Positions 7,733 to 37,674 of a stretch of DNA of 64,000 nucleotides are shown in pieces (the first letter of the stretch is position 1; each line of letters opens with the position of its first letter). The position numbers and the translations under genes were made by a program. A model generated the notes under the pieces. The model worked only from the letters and a program-made list of their open reading frames with translations, had not been told where the DNA came from and made no database searches. The DNA is from an uncultured Candidatus Micrarchaeota archaeon (GTDB taxonomy: Archaea; Micrarchaeota; Micrarchaeia; Anstonellales; Bilamarchaeaceae), in the NCBI GenBank assembly GCA_963714085.1, contig OY970229.1:1280001-1344000 (forward strand). Reading direction: 5' to 3'.

Positions 7733-7824
7733 ATTCCATCTTCTTGGGTTAAATAGTTATGTTCATGTGACCCGAAAAGGGCTTCAGACTCCAGAGTTAC
7801 TTAGAGGTTCTTCGTCTAGATTCC

Positions 7825-9132
7825 CTATGTCATCAGCCCCATCTCCAGGATCTTCTTCATCATGACCTCCTTGAACTCGTCGTCCTTCATGAGCTGGCTG
7901 AGGATGGACTGCGGGGCGATGGGCTCCTTCGACTTCTCCGGTTTCTCCGGCGGCTTCACGGGCGCCTTCTCGGATGTCTTCTCAAGTGGCTTATCAGGCA
8001 TCTTCACAAGCGCTTTCTCCTCCTCCGGCATGAACCCGTAGCCGCACTTCGAGCAGATCTTCGCTGCCGGAGGGCACGGGTTGCCGCACCTGGCGCATGG
8101 CGCCTGCCTGAACGTCTCGGCGTTGCTGCCCTCGTCCTTCTTCAGGCCGTTTATCTTGAGTATGGCGTCGTCCACGTCCCTGCCGCTCAGGTGAACGTAG
8201 ACGCTCGCCATGTCGCTGGCCTGGACCCACCCGAAATACTCCTTCATCTGCGCCTCCGTGAGCCTGCTCGCCATCATCGTGGCCCTGGAATGGCGGAAAA
8301 GGTGGGGGTGGACCCGTTTCGTTATCCCCACCTGCTTCGCCAGGGTCTTGATTATCCTGGCAGCGTACGGGTAGCTGAACGGGACAGGCTGCGTCTCCCT
8401 GCCGTACCTGCGCCGCACGAAGAGGTAGGCGTCCGGCATGTCCCTGTACGGGTGGAACTCGAGCCAGCCGGCCAGGGCCGGAACCGACGCGATGAGCCTT
8501 ATCCTCCTGTCCCCGGTCTTCCCTGTGACCACCACGACGACCCCGTATTCGTCGAACTTGAGGTTCTTGAGCTGGATTGTGAGGATCTCGCCTATCCGGC
8601 CCCCGCTCTCGTACAGGCACTGTATGAACGCCCTGTCCCTGGCGTCCTCGCAGGCCCCTATCATCCGCTTCACCTCGTCTTCGGTCAGCAGCTCGTCGGG
8701 CAGCTTGTGCTTGCCCTTCACGTGCACCTTTATCCAGCTAACCTCGGGCGGGTATTCCCTGTTCCCGCCCCGCAGCCATTTGAAGAAGCGGCGGAGCGTG
8801 ACCTTGTAGTCGTGCTTCGACCAGGGCGCGAGCTTTTCGTTGCCCTCGATGTCCACGACGATGTCCTTTATGTCGTCCTTGTCGAGCTCGGTGAGCGGCT
8901 TCTCCAGCTTTTTCGCGATCCTCTTGAGGGTCTCGACGTACTTGCAAAGCCGCGCTATCCTCATGCTCTCCGCGACCATGTCCCTGTGGAAATCGCATAT
9001 CACCCGGACGTTCTCCTTGGACAGGCCGGCCTTGCCGTTCCGCATGTTCTCCAGCATGGTCCTGAGCTGTCCGGCCCTTCCATGCGGATCGTATTTCATA
9101 CCCACCAAGCGCATCACCCCGTTTTTATACAT
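7825..9132 (-). CDS. Tyrosine recombinase/integrase with C-terminal Zn ribbon
   Basis: LYESGGRIGE, GKTG, HPHLFRHSRAT, YVHL; CARC..CSKC. Confidence 0.93.
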   Translation of the reverse strand: MYKNGVMRLVGMKYDPHGRAGQLRTMLENMRNGKAGLSKENVRVICDFHRDMVAESMRIARLCKYVETLKRIAKKLEKPLTELDKDDIKDIVVDIEGNEKLAPWSKHDYKVTLRRFFKWLRGGNREYPPEVSWIKVHVKGKHKLPDELLTEDEVKRMIGACEDARDRAFIQCLYESGGRIGEILTIQLKNLKFDEYGVVVVVTGKTGDRRIRLIASVPALAGWLEFHPYRDMPDAYLFVRRRYGRETQPVPFSYPYAARIIKTLAKQVGITKRVHPHLFRHSRATMMASRLTEAQMKEYFGWVQASDMASVYVHLSGRDVDDAILKINGLKKDEGSNAETFRQAPCARCGNPCPPAAKICSKCGYGFMPEEEKALVKMPDKPLEKTSEKAPVKPPEKPEKSKEPIAPQSILSQLMKDDEFKEVMMKKILEMGLMT

Positions 9133-9255
9133 GGATGCATGGTGTTGGCGTGAAACGGGGCGTGGAACGCCTTTTCATGGCGGAAACCCCCAAAAACCCG
9201 CAAAAGTGGCGGTTTATGGCGGTTTGCATCGGGAGGCGTGGAACAAGAAGAAATA

Positions 9256-9328
9256 CGCCCCGGGGATGACTCGAACATCCGGCCTGCTGATTAACAGTCA
9301 GCCGCTCTACCAGCTGAGCTACCGAGGC
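9256..9328 (-). tRNA. tRNA-Asn(GTT)
   Basis: Reverse complement GCCTCGGTAGCTCAGCTGGTAGAGCGGCTGACT-GTT-AATCAGCAGGCCGGATGTTCGAGTCATCCCCGGGGCG folds into a cloverleaf. Confidence 0.95.
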
Positions 9329-9386
9329 AATAAGATTGACTTTTGTTATCGAATCGTGTTTAAAAAACTAACACTTCAGGAAATCC

Positions 9387-10661: not shown

Positions 10662-11039
10662 TCAGGATTTGAATAGGCTCTTTATCCCCTTTATTATGCC
10701 CTCGGATTTGGCCTTCCAGCCGGCCAGGAAGCTCGTGAGGTTGTCCATGCCGCCGAGCACCATGAGGATCTCCTCTGATTCCTTGAGCACGCCCTTGTTC
10801 GAAGTGAGCCCGGGCACCTGGCTCATGTTCCGCAGCAGCTCGGTGACGCCGCGTTTGGTGTACATGGGCTTGCCGTCCTTCATTCGGGACGACCAGTCCT
10901 TGATGAACTGCTTCGCTTCTGGTGTCCTGAGGAACTCTTCAGAAGAAGTTGACTTCGCTTCCTCCGGCTTTGCCTGGACCTGCGTCGGTTGCTCTTCCTG
11001 CTGTTTCATCTGGAGGTCGCCTAAAGCCATGGTCACCAA
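10662..11039 (-). CDS. Hypothetical protein
   Basis: ORF with genome-typical codon usage; TATA-like TTATAAA upstream. Confidence 0.6.
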   Translation of the reverse strand: MVTMALGDLQMKQQEEQPTQVQAKPEEAKSTSSEEFLRTPEAKQFIKDWSSRMKDGKPMYTKRGVTELLRNMSQVPGLTSNKGVLKESEEILMVLGGMDNLTSFLAGWKAKSEGIIKGIKSLFKS

Positions 11040-28039: not shown

Positions 28040-28139
28040 TCCCCGCAGGACGGACTCCGTGGTGGAGCCACCGGAACCCCCGCTCGCCCGGTTTCCCAAT
28101 TCTTTAAAAACTCTTATTCCCAAGAAAGATTTGCTATTT

Positions 28140-28214
28140 GCCCCTGTAGTCTAGCCCGGTCAAGGACAACGGACTCTCACTCCGTGAACCCGAGTTCAAA
28201 TCTCGGCAGGAGCA
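28140..28214 (+). tRNA. tRNA-Glu(CTC)
   Basis: GCCCCTGTAGTCTAGCCCGGTCAAGGACAACGGACT-CTC-ACTCCGTGAACCCGAGTTCAAATCTCGGCAGGAGCA cloverleaf; C3:A70 mismatch; TATA upstream. Confidence 0.92.
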
Positions 28215-28418
28215 TATTCTCTTTATCTGAGTGCTCCCCCCTCAGCAGCAGCCAGCAACCGGTTCCCAGTCTCGGGTTTCGGGTTCTGAGTAATGGGTTT
28301 TGCACGAATTTGACACCATAATGTCAAATTTTACAGCAAGTAAAATATAGCCGGTTCAGCACAAAAATGCTGATACCAGCACGAAGCCAGATAAAGGCCT
28401 TCCACTGGAGTTGGAAAC

Positions 28419-29636
28419 ATGGCGAAAGTGGATCTATATGACTATCCGAGAAGGCTTGAGCAGGCAATTGAAAAATTAAGGGAAGAAAAAGGGGTTTGTA
28501 AGGAAAATGTCGAGGCCATAGTAACTTTTTCTAAGTTTAAACTGGCCAAAAGCTGTACGCATGGAAGGGTTGCCAAAACCGTTTATTGCCTACGATTCTT
28601 GGCAAAATGGCTCAAAAAACCTTTCAAAAAGGCAACAAAAGACGACCTGATCGCCTTAGTTGGCGATTTGGAACGGACGGATTACGCAGAATATACAAAA
28701 TACGACTATCGAGTCATTCTGAAGATGTTTTACAAATGGTTGGAAGGTAAAGACGAGTTTTTCCCGCCTAAGATTACCTGGCTAAGAAAAAGCATGAAGC
28801 ACCTTGATCACAAGCTACCTGAACAATTGATAACCGAGGAAGAAGTCCTGAAGTTGGCAGACGCAGCCATGAATCCAAGAGACAAAACGTTGATTTTGGT
28901 TCTTTATGAGACTGGTTGTAGGATTGGAGAACTACTATCACTACAAATGAGGAATGTTAGTTTTGATCAATATGGAGCCGTTCTGAGGGTTACTGGCAAA
29001 ACCGGCGATAGAAGGGTTCGAATCATCAGCTCGGCGTCTGTTTTGGCTTCCTGGATTAATTCACACCCTAAAGCAAAAGACCCGGAAGCTTGGCTATGGC
29101 TTCAATACAAAAACAATACGATAACCGATAAATGCCTGCGACATGGGACGATTTATGCAACTCTTAGGAAAATTGCCAAAAGAGCAGGTATTCAGAAGAA
29201 AATCTACCCGCATTTGTTTCGCCATTCAAGAGCCACTAATTTAGCAAATAAATTGACCGAATCGCAGATGAAGGAGCACTTCGGTTGGGTTCAAGGCTCT
29301 GATATGGCAGCGACGTATGTTCATCTTTCTGGTCGTGATGTTGATAACGCATTTTTGAAAATGCATGGCTTGGTTCCAATTGAAAACAACCGAGAAGAAA
29401 AACTGAGGGTAAGAACCTGCCAGCGCTGCAAGGAACACAATTCACCTACTTTCAAGTGCTGCACCAAATGTGGAATGCCTCTTGACGAATCTTTCATTTC
29501 AACAATCGAAAAAGAGCGTCAGAAAGGCGACAATCTCATGAACAAATTGATGGAAGATGACGAGGTCAGGAATTTTTTGCTAAAGAAAATGCTAGAGAAA
29601 GGACTAGATAAGGAATTGAACGGGGCGCAGGTATGA
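28419..29636 (+). CDS. Tyrosine recombinase/integrase with C-terminal Zn ribbon
   Basis: LYETGCRIGE, GKTG, YPHLFRHSRAT, YVHL; homologous to 7825-9132. Confidence 0.93.
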   Translation: MAKVDLYDYPRRLEQAIEKLREEKGVCKENVEAIVTFSKFKLAKSCTHGRVAKTVYCLRFLAKWLKKPFKKATKDDLIALVGDLERTDYAEYTKYDYRVILKMFYKWLEGKDEFFPPKITWLRKSMKHLDHKLPEQLITEEEVLKLADAAMNPRDKTLILVLYETGCRIGELLSLQMRNVSFDQYGAVLRVTGKTGDRRVRIISSASVLASWINSHPKAKDPEAWLWLQYKNNTITDKCLRHGTIYATLRKIAKRAGIQKKIYPHLFRHSRATNLANKLTESQMKEHFGWVQGSDMAATYVHLSGRDVDNAFLKMHGLVPIENNREEKLRVRTCQRCKEHNSPTFKCCTKCGMPLDESFISTIEKERQKGDNLMNKLMEDDEVRNFLLKKMLEKGLDKELNGAQV

Positions 29637-30127
29637 AAAATATCTACTCCATCGGCAAACGCCAATGGAAACTAGGGGGCAAAAACATAGGCGAGTACAT
29701 TGCCAGATGTTACGATCTTTACGAAACCAAGATGGGCAATAAATGGAAGCGCTATCTCATAAAAGTTCGCCCAAATGAAGGTGCGGATCATGCGTTTCTT
29801 TGTTGGTACACTGAGTCTTTATTATCAAAAATCGGTTTGAAATCAACTATCAATCCAACTTGGGGTGCTGATCTGGCTGTCGAATACAAAGAAAAGAAAA
29901 TATGCTTCGAAATAGAAACCGGAAAACGCTTAGACAGAATGAAACGGCGTGATATGTATGCTAGGTTTGATGAATATTCGAAGACTTATGCCCTGGTTTT
30001 CATAATCGTTCCTAATGAACGAGTAGCCAGAAGATATCGCGGATTTGGCAAGCCAGTCATAACAAAAGACAAAATAGAGGCTTTCATTCACTCTTTTTCA
30101 CTCACACACAACACTAAGGGCAGCTAG
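29633..30127 (+). CDS. PD-(D/E)xK-like nuclease-fold protein
   Basis: EGADH..GADLAV..CFEIETG; resembles the C-terminal domain of 2526-4772; ATGA overlap with integrase. Confidence 0.65.
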   Translation: MKNIYSIGKRQWKLGGKNIGEYIARCYDLYETKMGNKWKRYLIKVRPNEGADHAFLCWYTESLLSKIGLKSTINPTWGADLAVEYKEKKICFEIETGKRLDRMKRRDMYARFDEYSKTYALVFIIVPNERVARRYRGFGKPVITKDKIEAFIHSFSLTHNTKGS

Positions 30128-30300
30128 AACGCTTGTTCCATTGTGTTCTGAAGCTTAGAACGCCTAAAGCAGTGTGTTTTGCGTGTGTTTCTTTAAAAAG
30201 GCAAAATTAGCAAAACACAATGCTTTTTGCAATTCTGCACAATGGTCTGATCGTTTGGGTATTCAACACCCCCACAAAATTTTGAGCGAAATTAGGTGAA

Positions 30301-32394
30301 TTAAGGTCTAACAATTGCGAAACGATTAGAATCAGATTTGCTTGCTGTTTTCTTCTGGATCTTTTTCTTCGTCATCAACAACCATAGCAAGATTTTCTTC
30401 GCTTTCCGTTTTTTCTCTTGCGTTTCATAGAGCAAAAGCTCTTTTCTTCTACGCGTTTCACGCTCCTTCTGCTCCTTTATCACGGTTTTCTTTGTGTTTT
30501 TACTAACTAAGGAAACCTCATTGGTTTGAAGCTTAATGATTGGCCGTGGAAAGTTAGATTGATGATTTGATTTTCGGTTCTTGGCCTTTTCTAACAATTC
30601 CTTGGTCTGAGTTTGCCGGATTTGTTTTGACTTAACTGATTTTACTTGTCTTTCCTCTTTTCGTTCTGGTTTGATCGAAGTATCGGACCTGGCTTTTCTT
30701 TTACCGAACTTGGTTTTTTGTTCTTCTGCCGCTCTGAGCACTCGACTACTTTTTTCAGTTTTTCGTGCTTCGGATTTTGGAAGTAAAGGAGTATTGTTTT
30801 TGGTCTTTTTATTATGTCTAACTACGTGGGTTGCAGTTAATCGGTTTGGATTTCGAGTCTGAGTATATTGTTTTCGTCTCGAAATCTTCTTTTTTTCTAG
30901 TTCGTACTGAGGTTGAGCTTTTCGTGATGCATGCTTGATTCTTATGTGTTTTGAGTTCTTTAGATCAGATCGTCTAGTCTCAATTACCGCAGCGGAAGTT
31001 TTTGGATGGGCTTTTCTCTTCTGAGGTCTCGGTGTTTGTAAAAGTTGTGCATCTGAGTTCTCGGTGCGTGGTTTCCGAGATTTGCGAGGTTCTCTAGTTT
31101 GTCCGGCATTTTCTTCATTCCCAATTCTATCTGTGCGGACTTCAACGCATTCTGGCTTTGTCCTGAACCAAATATTTGAAAACGACCAGCCAGCTCCTGT
31201 TTCAATCACTTCTCTTGTGTTTCCTGCCAATGCTGACGTCTCTCTTTCGCCTGATCGTCGTTCTAATACTGTTAAAATTCCATCCAAACGAATGGTCTCC
31301 TTGTTTCCCTGGATATTTGAATTGGATTGAATGGTACTGCGCGTAACTGAGAAAAGGGCTGAATCCGCAGCTCCATTAAACCAAGGGCGTGTAAGTTTTC
31401 GTTTTTGATTCTCTTCTCTTGCAATTTCAAGAATGAAACGTAATCTCAGGTCAAAATAAGCGTTATATCCATAATCATTTGTTTGAATCGAGTGATGGTC
31501 AACAAGTGCAGAAAACACTGGATGAACTCGTCTAATTTCAACGTAATCAGGTTGCCATATTTGGTTTGGGATTTGGAAACTCTGCGGTGAAGGAGAAGCA
31601 AAACTATCCTGTAAAATAGGATTGTTGAGAATAACTGAAGGGGTTTGTATGGTGAAAGTTTGTAGTTCAGTTTGGGTGGTTGGAGGACTTGCAATTAAAG
31701 GTTGCAACTGTAAACTGTTGTTATTCAATTCCTTATTTGCAGCTGCAAGAATTTTTTGTTTAAGCTCCGGAGCCTGTTTTGCAGCTTCTTCTTGTACAAA
31801 TTGTGAAATTCGATCTATATTTTCAGCACATGCAAGTTTTGGTGCCTGCCACGCTCCAACTGGATGAGAGCAACGGCCAGAAGCTGCTATGACAAAATCC
31901 AACGCCAGAGGATTGTGCGTATCGGCGACAGCTTTGATGGCCTCTTTTAGAGTTCCTTCATCGCAGGTCGTGGAAAGAGAATTAAGCTTCTGCACTCCTT
32001 CGTTATTTTTCAACAGATCAGAAAAATGAGTAGTCAAAATGCCTTTTATCGTAGGATTTCCGTCTCCAGCTTCAATAATATCATGAACTGTTTTTGCATA
32101 ATCGGTCGCAGATGAGAGATTCTGAGCAAGTGCATATTTTGCGACTCCCCGATCCTGTTCATCGCCAGTTTGAACTATCCTGACAAGGACGGCTAGGTAT
32201 CCAGGCAGACTTGAGTTATCTTTTGCCTCAGCTATTTTATCCTTAAATCGATTTTGACATGGATGCGATCCTGAGCCATGTTTTTCTTGCTGCAGAGATG
32301 GAGATGGCGTGCGCTCTAGGGGTTTGGATACCTGCTGAGGTGACTTTGGAGGTAAACCTCGCCGTGTAGCACTAGCTCCTTCATTTTCTGCCAT
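30301..32394 (-). CDS. Hypothetical protein with long Lys/Arg-rich C-terminus
   Basis: ~700-codon ORF in AT-rich DNA; start uncertain. Confidence 0.6.
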   Translation of the reverse strand: MAENEGASATRRGLPPKSPQQVSKPLERTPSPSLQQEKHGSGSHPCQNRFKDKIAEAKDNSSLPGYLAVLVRIVQTGDEQDRGVAKYALAQNLSSATDYAKTVHDIIEAGDGNPTIKGILTTHFSDLLKNNEGVQKLNSLSTTCDEGTLKEAIKAVADTHNPLALDFVIAASGRCSHPVGAWQAPKLACAENIDRISQFVQEEAAKQAPELKQKILAAANKELNNNSLQLQPLIASPPTTQTELQTFTIQTPSVILNNPILQDSFASPSPQSFQIPNQIWQPDYVEIRRVHPVFSALVDHHSIQTNDYGYNAYFDLRLRFILEIAREENQKRKLTRPWFNGAADSALFSVTRSTIQSNSNIQGNKETIRLDGILTVLERRSGERETSALAGNTREVIETGAGWSFSNIWFRTKPECVEVRTDRIGNEENAGQTREPRKSRKPRTENSDAQLLQTPRPQKRKAHPKTSAAVIETRRSDLKNSKHIRIKHASRKAQPQYELEKKKISRRKQYTQTRNPNRLTATHVVRHNKKTKNNTPLLPKSEARKTEKSSRVLRAAEEQKTKFGKRKARSDTSIKPERKEERQVKSVKSKQIRQTQTKELLEKAKNRKSNHQSNFPRPIIKLQTNEVSLVSKNTKKTVIKEQKERETRRRKELLLYETQEKKRKAKKILLWLLMTKKKIQKKTASKSDSNRFAIVRP

Positions 32395-32544
32395 TGGCAA
32401 ATACATCGACAAAAATATTTATAATCCGTAGCATCATTTGAGAAAATATATCTCGATTATTTAGAGTTTAAGATAATAGATTGGAGCTGATTCACATTGG
32501 CAAACGTCTAATCTCCCTCCGACCAAGCCTTAAATAGCTCTTAC

Positions 32545-32586
32545 CTCAGAACCGCCCTCAGTGGAAGGCATAACTTGGCTTTCTTC
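32545..32586 (+). repeat. Element right-arm repeat, copy 1
   Basis: CTCAGAACCGCCCTCAGTGGAAGGCATAACTTGGCTTTCTTC identical (42 bp) at 34129-34170; first part also near 35078-35101. Confidence 0.92.
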
Positions 32587-33933
32587 TTACTCTAGCATCC
32601 CAACGAAAAACAATGGCCGACGCATATCATCCAGCATGCCAGGGTGAGTAAAGATTATTTTTTGTTTGGTCGTGAATCCCTTGAACTGAGTTCGCCCCTT
32701 GTTACGCCCGCCTATTTCACATACCAGATCGTTCACTAGATAATCAGGAGTTTTCTCTCCTCTTGTCCCCTTGAGATAATCTAATTGGATACCAAGACGT
32801 GAGATAGCGTCCACGAAAAAATCTTCACGCAACGCTCCTATCGCATCATCATACGATTTGAAAAGCAATCGATATGGCAGGGCGAATAATATCTTTGGCT
32901 CTTTGGTAATATTGGTGCCCTTTGGAAGAATACACTTTAGTACAAAAGCTTTTTCCAGCAAATCTACGTATCTCTGAACTTTTGTCTTAGCAATTTGGCA
33001 GTTTTGAGAGATGCTTGAATAGCTAATGCCCTCGCTTTCTGAGCGGCCGATGAAAAGTAGGATTTGGCGCACCTCAAAGGATTCGGCAAGGGTGATGCCA
33101 GAAGCTCGAATCAGATCACGTTCGATGATTGTGTCTAGCATATTGCGAAATTGTGGAAGCGTATCCTGCTGACCAAAAGTGAAAAGGTAATTACTCCCAG
33201 TAAGATAATCCTTAAACAGGGATTCAAAACGCAGATTCAGACCGTAATATGTCCTGCAACGCTCGGTATCTGTTAGATCAGAAAAAGGGAGTGGTTGAAC
33301 TTGGATATCTCTTGAAAAAAAGATAAACTCTCGAAAAGACAACGATAGAACAGAGAACACCCTCACACGGCGTGAGAGATCATATGTGGAGCTATGGAGG
33401 GAAATTGCGGATGAACTGGTAAACACCACTTGTAATTGAGGAAGAAAGTCGTAGATTTTTTTGAGTTCGTTGCCATAGTTTGGATATGCATGGATCTCGT
33501 CTATAAGAAGCAATTTGATGCCTTTGTCCATAAGTTCGTTTGCCAATCCGAAAAGGTCGGTTTCGCTTCCTGTATCGAGTGAGATATAAAACGAAGTTTT
33601 GGCCTGATTATGAATTTGTTTCAACAGCGTACTTTTTCCCACCCCCCTCGGACCGATTAGCGCTATGAAGATGCGTTCTCCTAAATGGCGATTGATCTCT
33701 TCATACACAAAACGTTTCTTGGGATAAGTAGCGCCCTCTTGCCTTGCTTTGTCGCTTAGAGTTTGCTGCTCTTCGTTGGGTACGTTACGAACTCCAAAAA
33801 CTCCCAACCGAGCCGATGGCAAGGTTGTCATATCAACAATACGTCGTGGATCCACACCTTCGGGCGGAAGTTTATGCTCTTCCTTCTTGGCGCTACGACG
33901 TTTGGTTTGTTTTCTATTACTCATACAATTCAT
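32587..33933 (-). CDS. AAA+ ATPase (AAA_14/DUF4143-like)
   Basis: GPRGVGKST, LLIDEIH, TSSS, LSRR, LSFREF, C-terminal PDY..EIGG. Confidence 0.85.
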   Translation of the reverse strand: MNCMSNRKQTKRRSAKKEEHKLPPEGVDPRRIVDMTTLPSARLGVFGVRNVPNEEQQTLSDKARQEGATYPKKRFVYEEINRHLGERIFIALIGPRGVGKSTLLKQIHNQAKTSFYISLDTGSETDLFGLANELMDKGIKLLLIDEIHAYPNYGNELKKIYDFLPQLQVVFTSSSAISLHSSTYDLSRRVRVFSVLSLSFREFIFFSRDIQVQPLPFSDLTDTERCRTYYGLNLRFESLFKDYLTGSNYLFTFGQQDTLPQFRNMLDTIIERDLIRASGITLAESFEVRQILLFIGRSESEGISYSSISQNCQIAKTKVQRYVDLLEKAFVLKCILPKGTNITKEPKILFALPYRLLFKSYDDAIGALREDFFVDAISRLGIQLDYLKGTRGEKTPDYLVNDLVCEIGGRNKGRTQFKGFTTKQKIIFTHPGMLDDMRRPLFFVGMLE

Positions 33934-34198
33934 TACACACCAAACTATATAAACCTATCATTTTGGCTAGTATTCATACGAAATGATAGTCATTTTAGAA
34001 TAATTTCAGACAAAATGATAGTTTGTTTATGACCGTGACTTCGCCAGATTTTCGATTCATCGAGCTTTTCCGAGGTAAATTTTCGTCAAATCCCTAACCC
34101 TCCCGGCCAATCATTAAATAGAACCCATCTCAGAACCGCCCTCAGTGGAAGGCATAACTTGGCTTTCTTCGGTACACACTCAGATAACCTCTCTGCAT

Positions 34199-35148
34199 TC
34201 GGCAGGAGCACTCTGCTTTTATCTAAGTGTTCCCCCCATTTGGCACCGCGGTGTCAAGTAATTCTCCTAGATATAAACTTGAAAATGTGGGAAGTTTAGG
34301 AGAACCTTAAAATGACATATTCTTATTAGTAAGCATGAAAGAATTACATATGGAAAATTCCTGGTTTTTAATCTCTAGCAAACTGAAAAAAATCAAATTC
34401 AATGGAGATACGGATATTCGGTATACAGAAGAATTTGTTAAAATGTTCATCCTTAAATTTACAAAAAGAGGGGATAGAATCTTAGACCCTTTTGCTGGTT
34501 TTGGTACAACGTTGTTTGTAGGCCAGCGACTGGGACGAACAGTTCTTGGGATAGAATACGACGAAAGTCAATATGAATACATTAACGACCGGATCAAAAA
34601 GCCCTGTAAAATCATTCATGGAAATTCCCTAAAACTCAGATCTTATAAATTGCCAAAGTTTGACTTTTCCATAACTTCTCCGCCCTACATGAGAAACTTT
34701 GATAAGGAAGATCCATTTACAAATTATACAAAAATTGGGAGTTACTCAAAATATTTGAAAGATATTGGAAGAATATACCGGCAGATCAAAAAGGTAATGA
34801 AAAAAAATGCCACAATCATAATCGAAGTGTCAAATACAATTGGTGAGGGCCGTCCCATGACTCCTTTAGCTTGGGACATAGGGAGAGAAATTTCGAAAAT
34901 ATTCTTTTTCGAACAAGAAATAATTTATTGTTCGACGGAAGGCGATCATAGCCACGTTTTAGTATTTAAGAACAAATGGCTGCAAAGTAATCATTTTCAT
35001 TGAAGTTCAGTGTCCAAGTGCAAGCAGCAGTGCAAGTCGTCTAACCCCCCTCAGGCCAGAGTATAAATAGCTCTTACCTCAGAACCGCCCTCAGTGGAAG
35101 GTCATTGTCTTTCACACTCAGATAAGCCCTGTGCTTCCGGCAGGAGCA
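34199..35148. mobile_element. Non-autonomous 938-bp att-bounded cassette carrying one DNA methyltransferase gene
   Basis: Core CGGCAGGAGCA at both ends with conserved arm motifs at identical spacing. Confidence 0.8.
34335..35003 (+). CDS. Orphan amino-DNA methyltransferase (N4-C/N6-A)
   Basis: Motif I DPFAGFGTT precedes motif IV TSPPY. Confidence 0.8.
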   Translation: MKELHMENSWFLISSKLKKIKFNGDTDIRYTEEFVKMFILKFTKRGDRILDPFAGFGTTLFVGQRLGRTVLGIEYDESQYEYINDRIKKPCKIIHGNSLKLRSYKLPKFDFSITSPPYMRNFDKEDPFTNYTKIGSYSKYLKDIGRIYRQIKKVMKKNATIIIEVSNTIGEGRPMTPLAWDIGREISKIFFFEQEIIYCSTEGDHSHVLVFKNKWLQSNHFH

Positions 35149-35751: not shown

Positions 35752-37674
35752 ATGCATTTTTCCCTTGAATCCCCCTACAAGCCAGCAGGCGACCAGCCCC
35801 AGGCAATAGACAAGCTGGTCGCAGGGGTGGAGAAAGGGGGCTTCCAGACTCTTTTAGGTGTGACCGGGTCCGGAAAGACGTTCACGATGGCCAATGTCAT
35901 CGCCCGCAGCGGCAAGAACGCAATAATCGTCTCGCACAACAAGACTCTTGCAGCGCAGCTCTACGCCGAGTTCCAGCAGTTCTTCCCGCAGGACAACGTG
36001 GGATTCTTCATATCATATTACGACTACTACCAGCCGGAGAGCTACATCGCCTCCACGGACACGTACATAGAGAAGGAGGCCGAGAGGAACGAGAAGCTGG
36101 AAGAATTCAGGCTACAAGCGACATCGTATCTCCTTTCGGGCAGGCCCACGGTCATCATCGCCTCGGTCTCGTGCATCTACGGCCTGGGCAATCCCGGAAC
36201 GTACGCCCAGCTGGGATTGGACCTCAAGAAAGGCATGCGCATCCGGAGGAAGGAGCTGACGCACTCCCTGGTCAAGATGCAATACGAGAGGAACGAGACC
36301 GTCCTTGAGAAAGGCAGCTTCCGCATGCGGGGTGACATGCTGGAAGTCTTCCCGCCGTTCTCGGATTCCGCCATACGCGTGATGTTCGAGGACGACGAGT
36401 TGCAATGGATCGAATCATTCGACGTGCTCAGCGGAAGGAAGAGCAAAACATCGAGCTACCTCCTGCTCCCGGCCAAGCACTTCGTGGTCCCGGACGAGAC
36501 GAAGAACGATGCGTTGGAGTCCATATCCGCGGAGCTGGAGGAATCCGCCCCGTCGCTCAAACCACTGGAAAGGCAGCGATTGGAGCAGAGGACGCGCTAC
36601 GACCTGGAGATGATACGCGAGCTGGGCTATTGCTCGGGCATAGAGAACTATTCAAGGCATTTCGACGGCCGCAAGCCCGGCGAGAGGCCGTACTGCCTGC
36701 TGGATTACTTCCCCAAGGACTTCCTCATGTTCATAGACGAATCCCATGTCACCCTGCCGCAGGTCCGGGGCATGTACCACGGCGATCTCACCAGGAAGCA
36801 GGCCCTGGTGGAGAACGGGTTCAGGCTGCCGTGCGCGTACGACAACCGGCCCCTGAAGTTCGAGGAGTTCGAGAAATTCATGAAGAACGTGGTCTTCGTC
36901 TCCGCCACTCCGGCGCAATATGAGCTGGACCACTCGTCCCAGGTTGTCGAACAGATAGTGCGCCCGACCGGCCTGGTGGACCCGGAGATAGAGATAAGGA
37001 AGACCAAAGGCCAACTGGACGATCTTTTATCCGAAGTCAAGCTCAGGGCTGACCGGAACGAGCGCACGCTCGTCACCACGCTCACGAAAAGGATGGCAGA
37101 GGACCTCGCGTCCTACCTCCATGACAAGGGTGCGAGGGTGCGTTACCTGCACTCCGAGATAGAGACGCTCGAGCGCACGAAGCTCATACGCGCATTGAGA
37201 GCAGGGAAGTTCGACTGCCTGGTCGGCATAAATCTCCTCAGGGAAGGTTTAGACATCCCCGAGGTCTCCCTGGTCGCGATACTGGACGCGGACAAGACCG
37301 GCTTCCTCCGCTCCTCGCAAGCCCTGATCCAGACCATAGGCCGTGCAGCGAGGAACGTGAACGGCAGGGTCATCATGTACTCGGACACTGTTTCCGAAGC
37401 CATGCGCGCAGCGATAAGCGAGACCGACAGGCGGCGCAAGAAGCAGGTTCTGTTCAACAAGAAGTACGGGATAACCCCCAAGACGATAATCAAGCCGGTT
37501 CCACCTGAAGAGGAGATAGGCGAGGTCGAAGCCGCGATCCCGAAGAGCATGAATGAGAAACAGAAGGAGGAGCTCATCGCCCTGTTCGAGGAGGAGATGA
37601 TGGCAGCGGCCGAGCGGCTGGACTTCGAGAAGGCGATAGCGCTGAGGGACAGGATACGGCAGCTGAGGAAATGA
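35752..37674 (+). CDS. uvrB: Excinuclease ABC subunit B
   Basis: GVTGSGKT, HNKTLAAQL, YYDYYQPE, DESH, GINLLREGLD, C-terminal UVR domain. Confidence 0.97.
   Translation: MHFSLESPYKPAGDQPQAIDKLVAGVEKGGFQTLLGVTGSGKTFTMANVIARSGKNAIIVSHNKTLAAQLYAEFQQFFPQDNVGFFISYYDYYQPESYIASTDTYIEKEAERNEKLEEFRLQATSYLLSGRPTVIIASVSCIYGLGNPGTYAQLGLDLKKGMRIRRKELTHSLVKMQYERNETVLEKGSFRMRGDMLEVFPPFSDSAIRVMFEDDELQWIESFDVLSGRKSKTSSYLLLPAKHFVVPDETKNDALESISAELEESAPSLKPLERQRLEQRTRYDLEMIRELGYCSGIENYSRHFDGRKPGERPYCLLDYFPKDFLMFIDESHVTLPQVRGMYHGDLTRKQALVENGFRLPCAYDNRPLKFEEFEKFMKNVVFVSATPAQYELDHSSQVVEQIVRPTGLVDPEIEIRKTKGQLDDLLSEVKLRADRNERTLVTTLTKRMAEDLASYLHDKGARVRYLHSEIETLERTKLIRALRAGKFDCLVGINLLREGLDIPEVSLVAILDADKTGFLRSSQALIQTIGRAARNVNGRVIMYSDTVSEAMRAAISETDRRRKKQVLFNKKYGITPKTIIKPVPPEEEIGEVEAAIPKSMNEKQKEELIALFEEEMMAAAERLDFEKAIALRDRIRQLRK

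Follow-up and report, generated by a model that had tools for sequence, protein, structure and literature searches.

The feature at positions 28140–35148 of a 64,000-nt window on contig OY970229.1, from a Candidatus Micrarchaeota archaeon (assembly GCA_963714085.1, genome size 1.57 Mb), is probably a composite island built by serial site-specific integration (accretion) at the 3’ end of a tRNA-Glu(CUC) gene. It comprises a proximal unit of 5996 bp with an intact tyrosine integrase gene, which we call E1, and a distal unit of 938 bp that appears to be a non-autonomous mini-element similar to cis-mobilizable elements (CIMEs). DPANN archaea, with their tiny genomes, are believed to be host-dependent, and their gain and exchange of accessory genes are poorly known. 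An earlier note on this DNA had guessed that the host was of DPANN type, which agrees with its being a Candidatus Micrarchaeota, a DPANN group.

The attachment (att) sites share the 11-nt core CGGCAGGAGCA, the 3’ end of tRNA-Glu(CUC), which is present in three exact copies and no more (coordinates of these and other features are in Table 1). At up to one mismatch the window contains 12 matches against 1.88 expected, a number reached by none of 100 shuffles. Core 1 is followed after 8 nt by the downstream arm TTATCTGAGTG, core 3 is preceded at a distance of 12 nt by the upstream arm ACACTCAGATAA, and core 2 has both, with ACACTCAGATAA again 12 nt before it and TTATCTAAGTG, which has one mismatch, 8 nt past it. 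This is the pattern of attL, P-O-P’ junction and attR, and the inverted-repeat arms of the two units agree at 12 of 12 and 10 of 11 positions with equal spacings. Genome-wide, the 12-mer arm occurs seven times at up to one mismatch, and four of these occurrences are the arms of the tRNA-Glu locus. Exact matches and shuffle statistics thus agree with the three cores and their arms as the earlier note described them, except that the arms are longer than it gave and that it overlooked a 68-nt repeat, R68, ahead of cores 2 and 3. A third copy of R68, R68a, lies inside E1 with neither arm nor core behind it. Within R68 a 22-mer, CAGAACCGCCCTCAGTGGAAGG, is identical in all three copies and has no other occurrence in the genome at up to three mismatches; its copies in other genomes differ from the window version by 2 to 7 letters. 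The left part of R68a is identical to the copy ahead of core 3 and the right part to the copy ahead of core 2, which points to exchange between copies. Aligned sites share a common plan: on the P side a TATA-like box, the 22-mer, ACACTCAGATAA, a conserved 12-nt spacer CCTCTCTGCATY and the core, and on the P’ side 8 nt, TTATCTGAGTG, TTCCCCCC and a palindrome; in full elements the P’ side goes on with another TATA-like box and CCTTCCACTG, and then the integrase begins.

Both units are foreign DNA of low guanine-plus-cytosine (GC) content, with 0.417 in E1 and 0.376 in the distal unit against 0.573 for the genome. Along the window, GC content drops from about 0.57–0.62 in the flanks to 0.34–0.45 between the outer cores and returns to about 0.5–0.58 after core 3. 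Over 39 nt, site 1 and site 2 have P’ sides that are 79% alike, and the P arms of the two units are 68–88% alike; since the units differ to this extent, they were integrated serially and did not arise by duplication. Site 2 is accordingly a true P-O-P’ junction between two different units, as expected from the earlier proposal of two circles integrated in series.

E1 is best explained as an autonomous integrative element whose XerA-like tyrosine integrase is intact. The integrase frame starts 204 nt from the core and matches positions 3–169 of the 172 of the PF00589 profile; the catalytic domain is XerA-like, and the C-terminal tail behind it is rich in Cys. We take the R, H-x-x-R and Y blocks of the translation to be the conserved catalytic motifs. 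The nearest solved structure is XerA (4a8e, E = 2.6e-17), while the score against the NCBIfam XerA equivalog NF040815, 113 bits, stays below the cut-off of 220; the protein has N- and C-terminal regions beyond those of XerA, and its gene sits in low-GC foreign DNA. As with classical non-suicidal archaeal integrases, the gene is intact after integration and attP lies outside it. Two paralogues, 61% and 45% identical, are present in the same genome. The order of motifs in the E1 P’ arm is the same in genomes G114 and G152 and in metagenome contig L054. At the other end of E1, R68a directly abuts the 3’ end of the gene for an ATPase that matches PDC-S01, a candidate defence family. A near-palindrome, TGCTGATAYCRRCA, recurs near att sites of the tRNA-Glu and tRNA-Leu(UAG) frames (window 28368–28381, L026 about 7815–7828, L071 about 11010–11023); it is upstream of the integrase in E1 and in G016 and inside a P arm in G111, and may be a regulator-binding site.

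The 938-bp unit is made up of a truncated P’ arm of 46 nt, a methylase module of 781 bp, a P arm of 100 nt and the core, and in circular form its attP measures about 157 nt (P arm, 11-nt core, truncated P’ arm). Its P’ arm follows those of L054 site B and G114 as far as GGTGTCAA and diverges after that. The only gene-candidate open reading frame (ORF) of at least 60 amino acids (aa) in the unit encodes a methylase of 222 aa, or of 214 aa from the second ATG, which matches PF01555 (E = 2.1e-21) and resembles type II enzymes; the earlier description of an integrase-less unit with one DNA methyltransferase gene therefore stands. The module has its own TATA-like box 55–65 nt ahead of the ATG, and the TATA-like box of the preceding P arm (34112–34119) also points into it. 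The unit retains no integrase remnant: P’ is cut at 34256 and gives way to a module known from other frames. It is a chimera in which Glu-type arms and the module meet at two break points. We saw no terminal inverted repeats and no clear target duplication at the module ends by eye, and the module in genome G002 has different ends (34292–34982 in window coordinates). The sharp ends at 34257 and 35037 were considered as the boundary of a recurrent site-specific cassette, a reading that we rejected; both are breakpoints of one chimera, which also define where the arms ‘end’. With the unit read as a two-breakpoint chimera, the sharp ends need no special cassette-forming mechanism.

Table 1. Features of the tRNA-Glu locus (positions in the window), related units in other records, and stacks behind other tRNA genes of the same genome.
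Feature	Location	Strand	Remarks
tRNA-Glu(CUC), attB-bearing	28140–28214	+	ARAGORN; Rfam RF00005, 59.4 bits; core copy 1 at 28204–28214
P’ arm of E1	28215–28418	+	TTATCTGAGTG at 28223–28233, CTCCCCCC, palindrome TTGACACCATAATGTCAA, CCTTCCACTG right before integrase start
Tyrosine integrase, 405 aa, intact	28419–29636	+	PF00589, E = 4.9e-22
164-aa ORF	29633–30127	+	overlaps integrase stop; no family found
703-aa low-complexity ORF, K/R/Q/P-rich	30301–32412	-	no family found
R68a, internal P-arm repeat copy	32519–32586	+	TATA-like box TTAAATAG and 22-mer; no arm or core after
AAA_14/DUF4143 P-loop ATPase, 448 aa	32587–33933	-	PF13173, E = 6.4e-23; PADLOC PDC-S01, E = 1.4e-30
P arm of E1	34086–34199	+	R68b 34103–34170, arm ACACTCAGATAA 34176–34187, 12-nt spacer CCTCTCTGCATT
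Core copy 2, centre of P-O-P’ junction	34200–34210	+	
Truncated P’ arm of mini-element	34211–34256	+	CTCTGCTT, TTATCTAAGTG at 34219–34230, TTCCCCCC, palindrome TTGGCACCGCGGTGTCA
781-bp methylase module	34257–35037	+	TATA-like box TAGATATAAAC, ORF 34335–35003, 34-nt tail
P arm of mini-element	35038–35137	+	CGTCTAACCCCCC, TATAAATAG, R68c 35052–35119 with TATA-like box 35066–35074, arm ACACTCAGATAA 35114–35125, spacer GCCCTGTGCTTC
Core copy 3 (attR)	35138–35148	+	chromosomal flank after: 191-aa ORF, then uvrB 35752–37674
G152 unit, 1399 bp	directly behind tRNA-Glu		one 350-aa ATPase-like gene
G114 unit, 1942 bp			integrase stub and R68a-ATPase-R68b
G105 unit, 93 bp			empty, arm remnants only
L054 units, 3018 and 4461 bp			no integrase; no tRNA within 16 kb examined
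20 kb plus 1664 bp	tRNA-Leu(GAG)		61% integrase paralogue in the 20 kb, one ORF in the 1664 bp; P-O-P’ middle site
8.7 kb plus 1870 bp plus 680 bp	tRNA-Leu(UAA)		Na/H exchanger gene in the 1870 bp, DUF4389 gene in the 680 bp
901 bp	tRNA-Leu(CAA), called Pro by ARAGORN		low GC
818 bp	tRNA-Thr		low GC
30.7 kb	tRNA-Asn		45% integrase paralogue

The methylase module is found well beyond this genome. Matches to the methylase at E of 1e-10 or better occur in 15 of the 176 genomes of the order, and eight genomes besides this one, from three genera, carry copies or pieces at 86–99% amino acid identity: G111, G084, G102, G005 and G002, together with G093 (at 86%), G091 (split over two contig ends) and G112 (a 29-aa piece at a contig end). 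At the nucleotide level the block 34257–35037 is 91–95.6% identical in eight other loci, where the longest matches share both ends, and with the same ends it lies near the end of an 18,079-nt contig from sequencing run X2. In a comparison of six copies over 690 shared columns, which leaves out the split G091, diverged G093 and partial G112 copies, all 15 pairs are 89.9–95.4% identical. The housekeeping gene uvrB, which lies near the array in the window and was found in three of the five genomes compared, is 82, 77 and 68% identical. Because the module is 90–95% identical and uvrB only 68–82%, we conclude that the module spread horizontally.

The surroundings of the module differ among these genomes. 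Behind tRNA-Leu(UAG) two copies of the core TGCTCCCTGCA bound the frame; after the first come a 44-nt arm and the module, and an arm of about 190 nt leads from the module to the second. In this frame the module heads the array in G091, with a one-gene TFIIB unit behind it, comes second in G111, after a unit with DUF3024 and ATPase genes, and lies further along in G084. In G005 the same arms surround the module, but the core is a different Leu-type one; in G002, which belongs to the genus of the window, the methylase lies after tRNA-Leu(UAA), with a P’ arm like that found at tRNA-Leu(GAG) of the window genome and with other break points. The 44-nt Leu arm, P’X, was found in five genomes and always with the methylase module where the flank is visible (the G090 copy is at a contig start); two further matches at three mismatches are at control level. 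On this comparison, the methylase cargo sits in the docking frames of three different tRNA genes and has crossed genera recently. Two smaller observations concern the same arrays. The one-gene unit of G091 (L074 13238–14381), between tRNA-Leu(UAG) cores, holds a complete TFIIB-type gene (PF00382, E = 3.5e-46), that is, a basal transcription factor as mobile cargo. In G084 (L072 9286–9395) an insertion of about 110 nt with the inverted repeats CCAAACCAACC and GGTTGGTTTGG splits the 5’ part of the methylase module, and may be a miniature transposable element.

Window-type arms also recur around other cargo. A 171-nt query across junction 2 matches 13 of 99 genomes of the family, and four other records (genomes G152, G114 and G105 and metagenome contig L054) have integrase-less units with different cargo in such arms, so that variable cassettes with the same arms, which the earlier note had suggested seeking in relatives at tRNA-Glu, do exist. 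E1 alone has an intact integrase among the seven Glu-frame units with both ends visible. In G114 the core and P’ arm are followed by 140 nt that are 81% identical to window 28395–28534, the upstream region and first codons of the integrase gene; this stub is fused straight to R68a, the ATPase, R68b, arm and core (77% over 1509 nt), and the ATPases of E1 and of G114 share 77% amino acid identity. The G114 unit is an element of the E1 type from which one deletion removed the two unknown ORFs and the greater part of the integrase gene, and the 93-bp unit of G105 is the end point of such decay. Given the stub in one and the empty shell of the other, integrase-less units can arise by decay. For the 938-bp unit of the window we saw no integrase remnant, and decay is visible in the sister units G114 and G105.

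Full elements may gain genes as well as lose them. The R68a-ATPase junction is common to the window and G114 and looks like the scar of an older junction between stacked units, with its arm, core and P’ deleted, in which case E1 would have absorbed a neighboring ATPase unit. AAA_14 ATPases, with 21–36% mutual identity, are often the sole or main cargo elsewhere, as in G011 behind tRNA-Glu and in the tRNA-Leu arrays of G084 and G111.

Several other records from these searches deserve mention. The arm-pair search, run with a gap of 25–37 nt, also returned two viral-contig loci, which we rejected as AT-rich and unrelated, and two metagenome loci, of which L053 is the unrelated AT-rich sequence again and was rejected, while L054 is a true relative. 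Two genomes of the same genus were considered as empty tRNA-Glu sites and rejected: the G001 contig stops exactly at the tRNA-Glu 3’ end, and in G002 the DsbA-like neighbor is inverted and downstream of the tRNA. This last arrangement (L032, G002:C150, 533–2106), in which a gene that is upstream of tRNA-Glu in the window is found downstream and inverted, could be an inversion broken at the tRNA 3’ end or an assembly problem. In G016 (L026, G016:C11, 330–7960) an element with an integrase 80% identical to that of E1 has the same inverted arms at 31-nt spacing, around a centre TGCGGTCGCCG that differs and is not tRNA-derived; 22 of its 31 positions match the flipped centre of the window, against 10 of 31 unflipped. 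The centre is seemingly inverted relative to the integrase gene, which suggests target switching and flipping of core orientation within fixed arms. In L054 (3373–3558 and 10575–11038), about 460 nt of the chromosomal flank that adjoins the last att site has a second copy, about 90% identical, behind the first one; the unit enclosed by the flank repeats has a chromosome-like GC content of 0.55 and may be a piece of a related chromosome brought in with an element.

We infer that the neighboring E1 integrase mobilises the mini-element and that the P-arm TATA-like box serves as a promoter directed outward. In the mechanism we propose, the distal unit is an attP around a 781-bp module, which has a TATA-like box of its own and encodes an orphan DNA methyltransferase resembling type II enzymes. 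The E1 integrase would recombine any two of the three directly repeated att sites, releasing E1 alone, the mini-element alone (in trans) or both together as a 6.9-kb circle (in cis), and released units could re-insert at the tRNA-Glu core. Mini-elements would derive from full elements through internal deletion, neighboring units would fuse once the junction between them is lost, as seemingly happened when E1 captured its ATPase gene, and the conserved P arms would give homology for integrase-independent shuffling. The P-arm TATA-like box would fire outward, into the integrase in the circle and into the next unit in the array; such promoter logic is shown in bacteria by promoter switching in ICEKp1, as far as the description in a 2026 paper goes. 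The orphan methylase would pay its way by protecting DNA from restriction.

A more general version of this mechanism is possible but doubtful: a tRNA-anchored cassette system in Micrarchaeota, integron-like without being an integron, in which XerA-like integrases would stack minicircles of one gene and an attP of about 150 nt in trans behind tRNA-Glu and tRNA-Leu genes, outward P-arm TATA-like boxes would read into the next unit, and mostly defence cargo would be re-armed between tRNA att frames. If it were true, genome-reduced symbionts would share a rapidly exchangeable pool of accessory genes.

Several findings weigh against a mobile mini-element. Its P’ arm ends after 46 nt, without the distal P’ motifs that full elements keep (the integrase-proximal TATA-like box and CCTTCCACTG), and with so short an arm it may be recombination-defective. 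The tRNA-Leu methylase arrays have no integrase inside them, most of the arrays examined have none inside or beside them, and methylase-bearing genomes hold 0 to 6 integrases elsewhere, G093 having no PF00589 match at all; integrase-less units could be fossils. Different positions in an array can also come from later insertions beside a vertically inherited unit. The exact arm pair with a 31-nt centre was found in one of 176 order genomes, this one, and in the 259-kb metagenome contig L054, and a search of viral contigs gave no relatives of the integrase or methylase and no free viral or plasmid form. Sequencing runs were examined as Logan contigs, and no run contains half of the sampled words. 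In X1, the run that holds the organism, no contig showed a joint across either unit; identical contigs reach only up to 28237 and otherwise lie within the units, and bins 34032–34599 are uncovered. Run X5 has cover on the flanks and on 34231–35130 and none on 28068–34031, which is only a lead for a strain with the mini-element but without E1, since gaps in contig cover prove nothing. A joint from 32569 to 34159 in run X3 is explained by the two R68 copies.

The short P’ arm, the tRNA-Leu arrays with no integrase inside and the missing joints are what one would expect if the 938-bp unit were an inert fossil, the last remnant of a larger methylase-bearing Glu-type element and immobile since, with the methylase carried around solely by larger elements that had an integrase and later decayed separately from genome to genome. 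Decay is, moreover, seen directly in the G114 stub and the G105 shell. We nevertheless regard this explanation as unlikely. The tRNA-Leu cassette with its own P’X arm is found only with the methylase module and never with an integrase-bearing element, and its presence at two different Leu cores suggests that it travels as a small unit. In addition, the 22-mer of the mini-element equals both E1 copies, where drift would be expected in a long-dead fossil. The earlier note had named a deletion remnant as grounds for giving up its reading; units do arise in this way, yet the methylase cargo clearly moved between genera.

The earlier note had also viewed the locus as an integron-like capture platform. 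As a full integron analogue, the tRNA and a resident integrase would form a standing site where one-gene attP minicircles are routinely captured, reordered and expressed from the outward TATA-like box. Arrays of one-gene units are indeed seen behind several tRNA genes, both here and in related genomes, their cargo is enriched in defence-type genes (methylase, PDC-S01 ATPases), and the TATA-like box is conserved in the P arms of the Glu and Leu(UAG) frames. The single-stranded junction can also fold as a hairpin (-9.4 and -11.4 kcal/mol; z -2.7 and -3.2), but this is a trivial consequence of the inverted arms. We find this explanation improbable, because the integrase is not IntI-like: it scores 46 bits against the integron integrase model TIGR02249 (cut-off 265) and 28.6 against NF011946 (cut-off 435), and its match to the solved IntI4 is limited to residues 117–201. 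Nor does the rest of the array fit a platform. The integrase is present in only one of the seven Glu-frame units and several arrays have none nearby, the units show random decay and sizes from 93 bp to 4.5 kb with no uniform cassette format, and the methylase module owns a TATA-like box.

Integrons have been reported in Archaea (bioRxiv 10.1101/2022.02.06.479319, PMC9668308), and, as far as those descriptions go, the likeness lies in a tyrosine recombinase, in small units that form an array, mostly hold one gene and each have an inverted-repeat recombination site, and in a possible outward promoter. The window array differs in having no IntI-type integrase and no attC. Its 12-nt arms are hairpin-capable, but the match to the target is the tRNA 3’ end, located in the 31-nt centre, so that the core lies mid inverted repeat rather than in an attC-type R’ box; the units have their own promoter-like box, and the integrase sits in one mobile unit, not in a fixed platform. 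By membership, the array is not an integron. That the core repeats are chance, or that the tandem layout was mis-assembled at short shared repeats, is scarcely credible: no read-derived contig listed bridges site 2 or site 3, but the repeats far exceed chance, those shared are at most 68 nt and below typical read length, and the P-O-P’ type of junction occurs independently in the 259-kb metagenome contig and at tRNA-Leu(GAG) here.

Among known systems, the closest kind appears to be a CIME with tandem accretion, as defined on streptococcal ICESt1/ICESt3-type elements in the portion of that work relevant here (PMC5704250). The mini-element is flanked by att sites cognate to the neighboring integrase-bearing E1, has no integration or transfer genes and only the PF01555 methylase, and is stacked at a tRNA 3’ end with a chimeric att site in the middle; the G114 sister unit directly shows a full element in decay, and the R68a scar is consistent with gene capture by junction loss. 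The differences are an archaeal host with a XerA-like integrase, the extremely small size of the window unit (one gene in 938 bp) with no conjugation module beside it, and the presence of the same cargo in att frames for three different tRNA genes; mobilisation, moreover, is something that we infer here.

Tycheposons of Prochlorococcus are tRNA-targeting elements with tyrosine recombinases whose successive integrations push older elements into the island (bioRxiv 10.1101/2020.12.28.424599). Compared by that description, as far as it extends, they share with our locus the tRNA target, stacking, degenerate remnants and partial tRNAs in islands, and adaptive or defence cargo. Their hosts are bacterial and unrelated, as are their integrases as far as tested, and remnants are what is described there, in contrast to the intact one-gene units keeping both arms that we see here. 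Tandem integrated mobile genetic elements are also known in archaea (PMC8371274, PMC6563490). In the parts of these accounts that deal with classical elements of the lambda/pNOB8 paradigm, integration likewise leaves the integrase gene unbroken, the elements target a tRNA 3’ end with a short core, and arrays form through re-use of the site. However, the R...YxxR...Y signature of pNOB8-type integrases (PMC8371274) is absent from the window integrase, whose box HLFRHSR has H-x-x-R, as in Xer-type enzymes, instead of Y-x-x-R, and those parts describe no DPANN hosts and no integrase-less one-gene units with both arms. Word searches of open-access literature, which are no proof of absence, found no paper on integrase-less one-gene att-bounded units in Micrarchaeota or other DPANN.

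In Micrarchaeota, very small integrase-less units that keep both docking arms make up a large part of the foreign DNA downstream of tRNA genes, and full elements decay into such units and also seem to absorb neighbors. Hitch-hiking of stripped-down units is of a known kind, little studied in archaea, and the travel of cargo across genera and att frames adds to the interest of the locus. If the units are still mobilised, they would offer genome-reduced archaea a cheap route of gene exchange and of defence and anti-restriction traffic, and would provide a natural setting in which to ask how cassettes of one gene and its recombination sites originate; if they are fossils, the arrays would still be a dated record of past invasions.

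Similar stacks occur at other tRNA genes of this genome (Table 1). An 11-nt repeat of the gene’s own 3’ end lies within 40 kb downstream of 11 of the 43 tRNA genes; those behind tRNA-Ser, Lys, Ala, Val and Tyr were rejected and taken as chance, as they have genome-like GC content and lie in or near large genes. The 45% integrase paralogue is itself in the window (8017–9329, minus strand), beside tRNA-Asn(GUU), whose 3’-end repeat is 30.7 kb off (C1:1258508–1289329). The DNA so bounded has a GC content of 0.487 and looks like a large integrated element filling the first part of the window.

Several docking tRNAs escape ARAGORN or receive a wrong name from it; a tRNA-Leu(CAA) of this genome, for example, is given as tRNA-Pro(ggg). 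Docking tRNA genes carry non-canonical introns, in the T-loop region as well as in the anticodon loop; examples are at L039 (G011:C53) 897–1028, L075 598–758, L071 13768–13990 and L078 (reverse complement) 2030–2204. The acceptor stem of the window tRNA-Glu(CUC) contains the mismatch C3.A70 (5’ GCCCCTG, 3’ CAGGAGC), where genomes of the same genus have GCTCCTG and a G discriminator instead of A.

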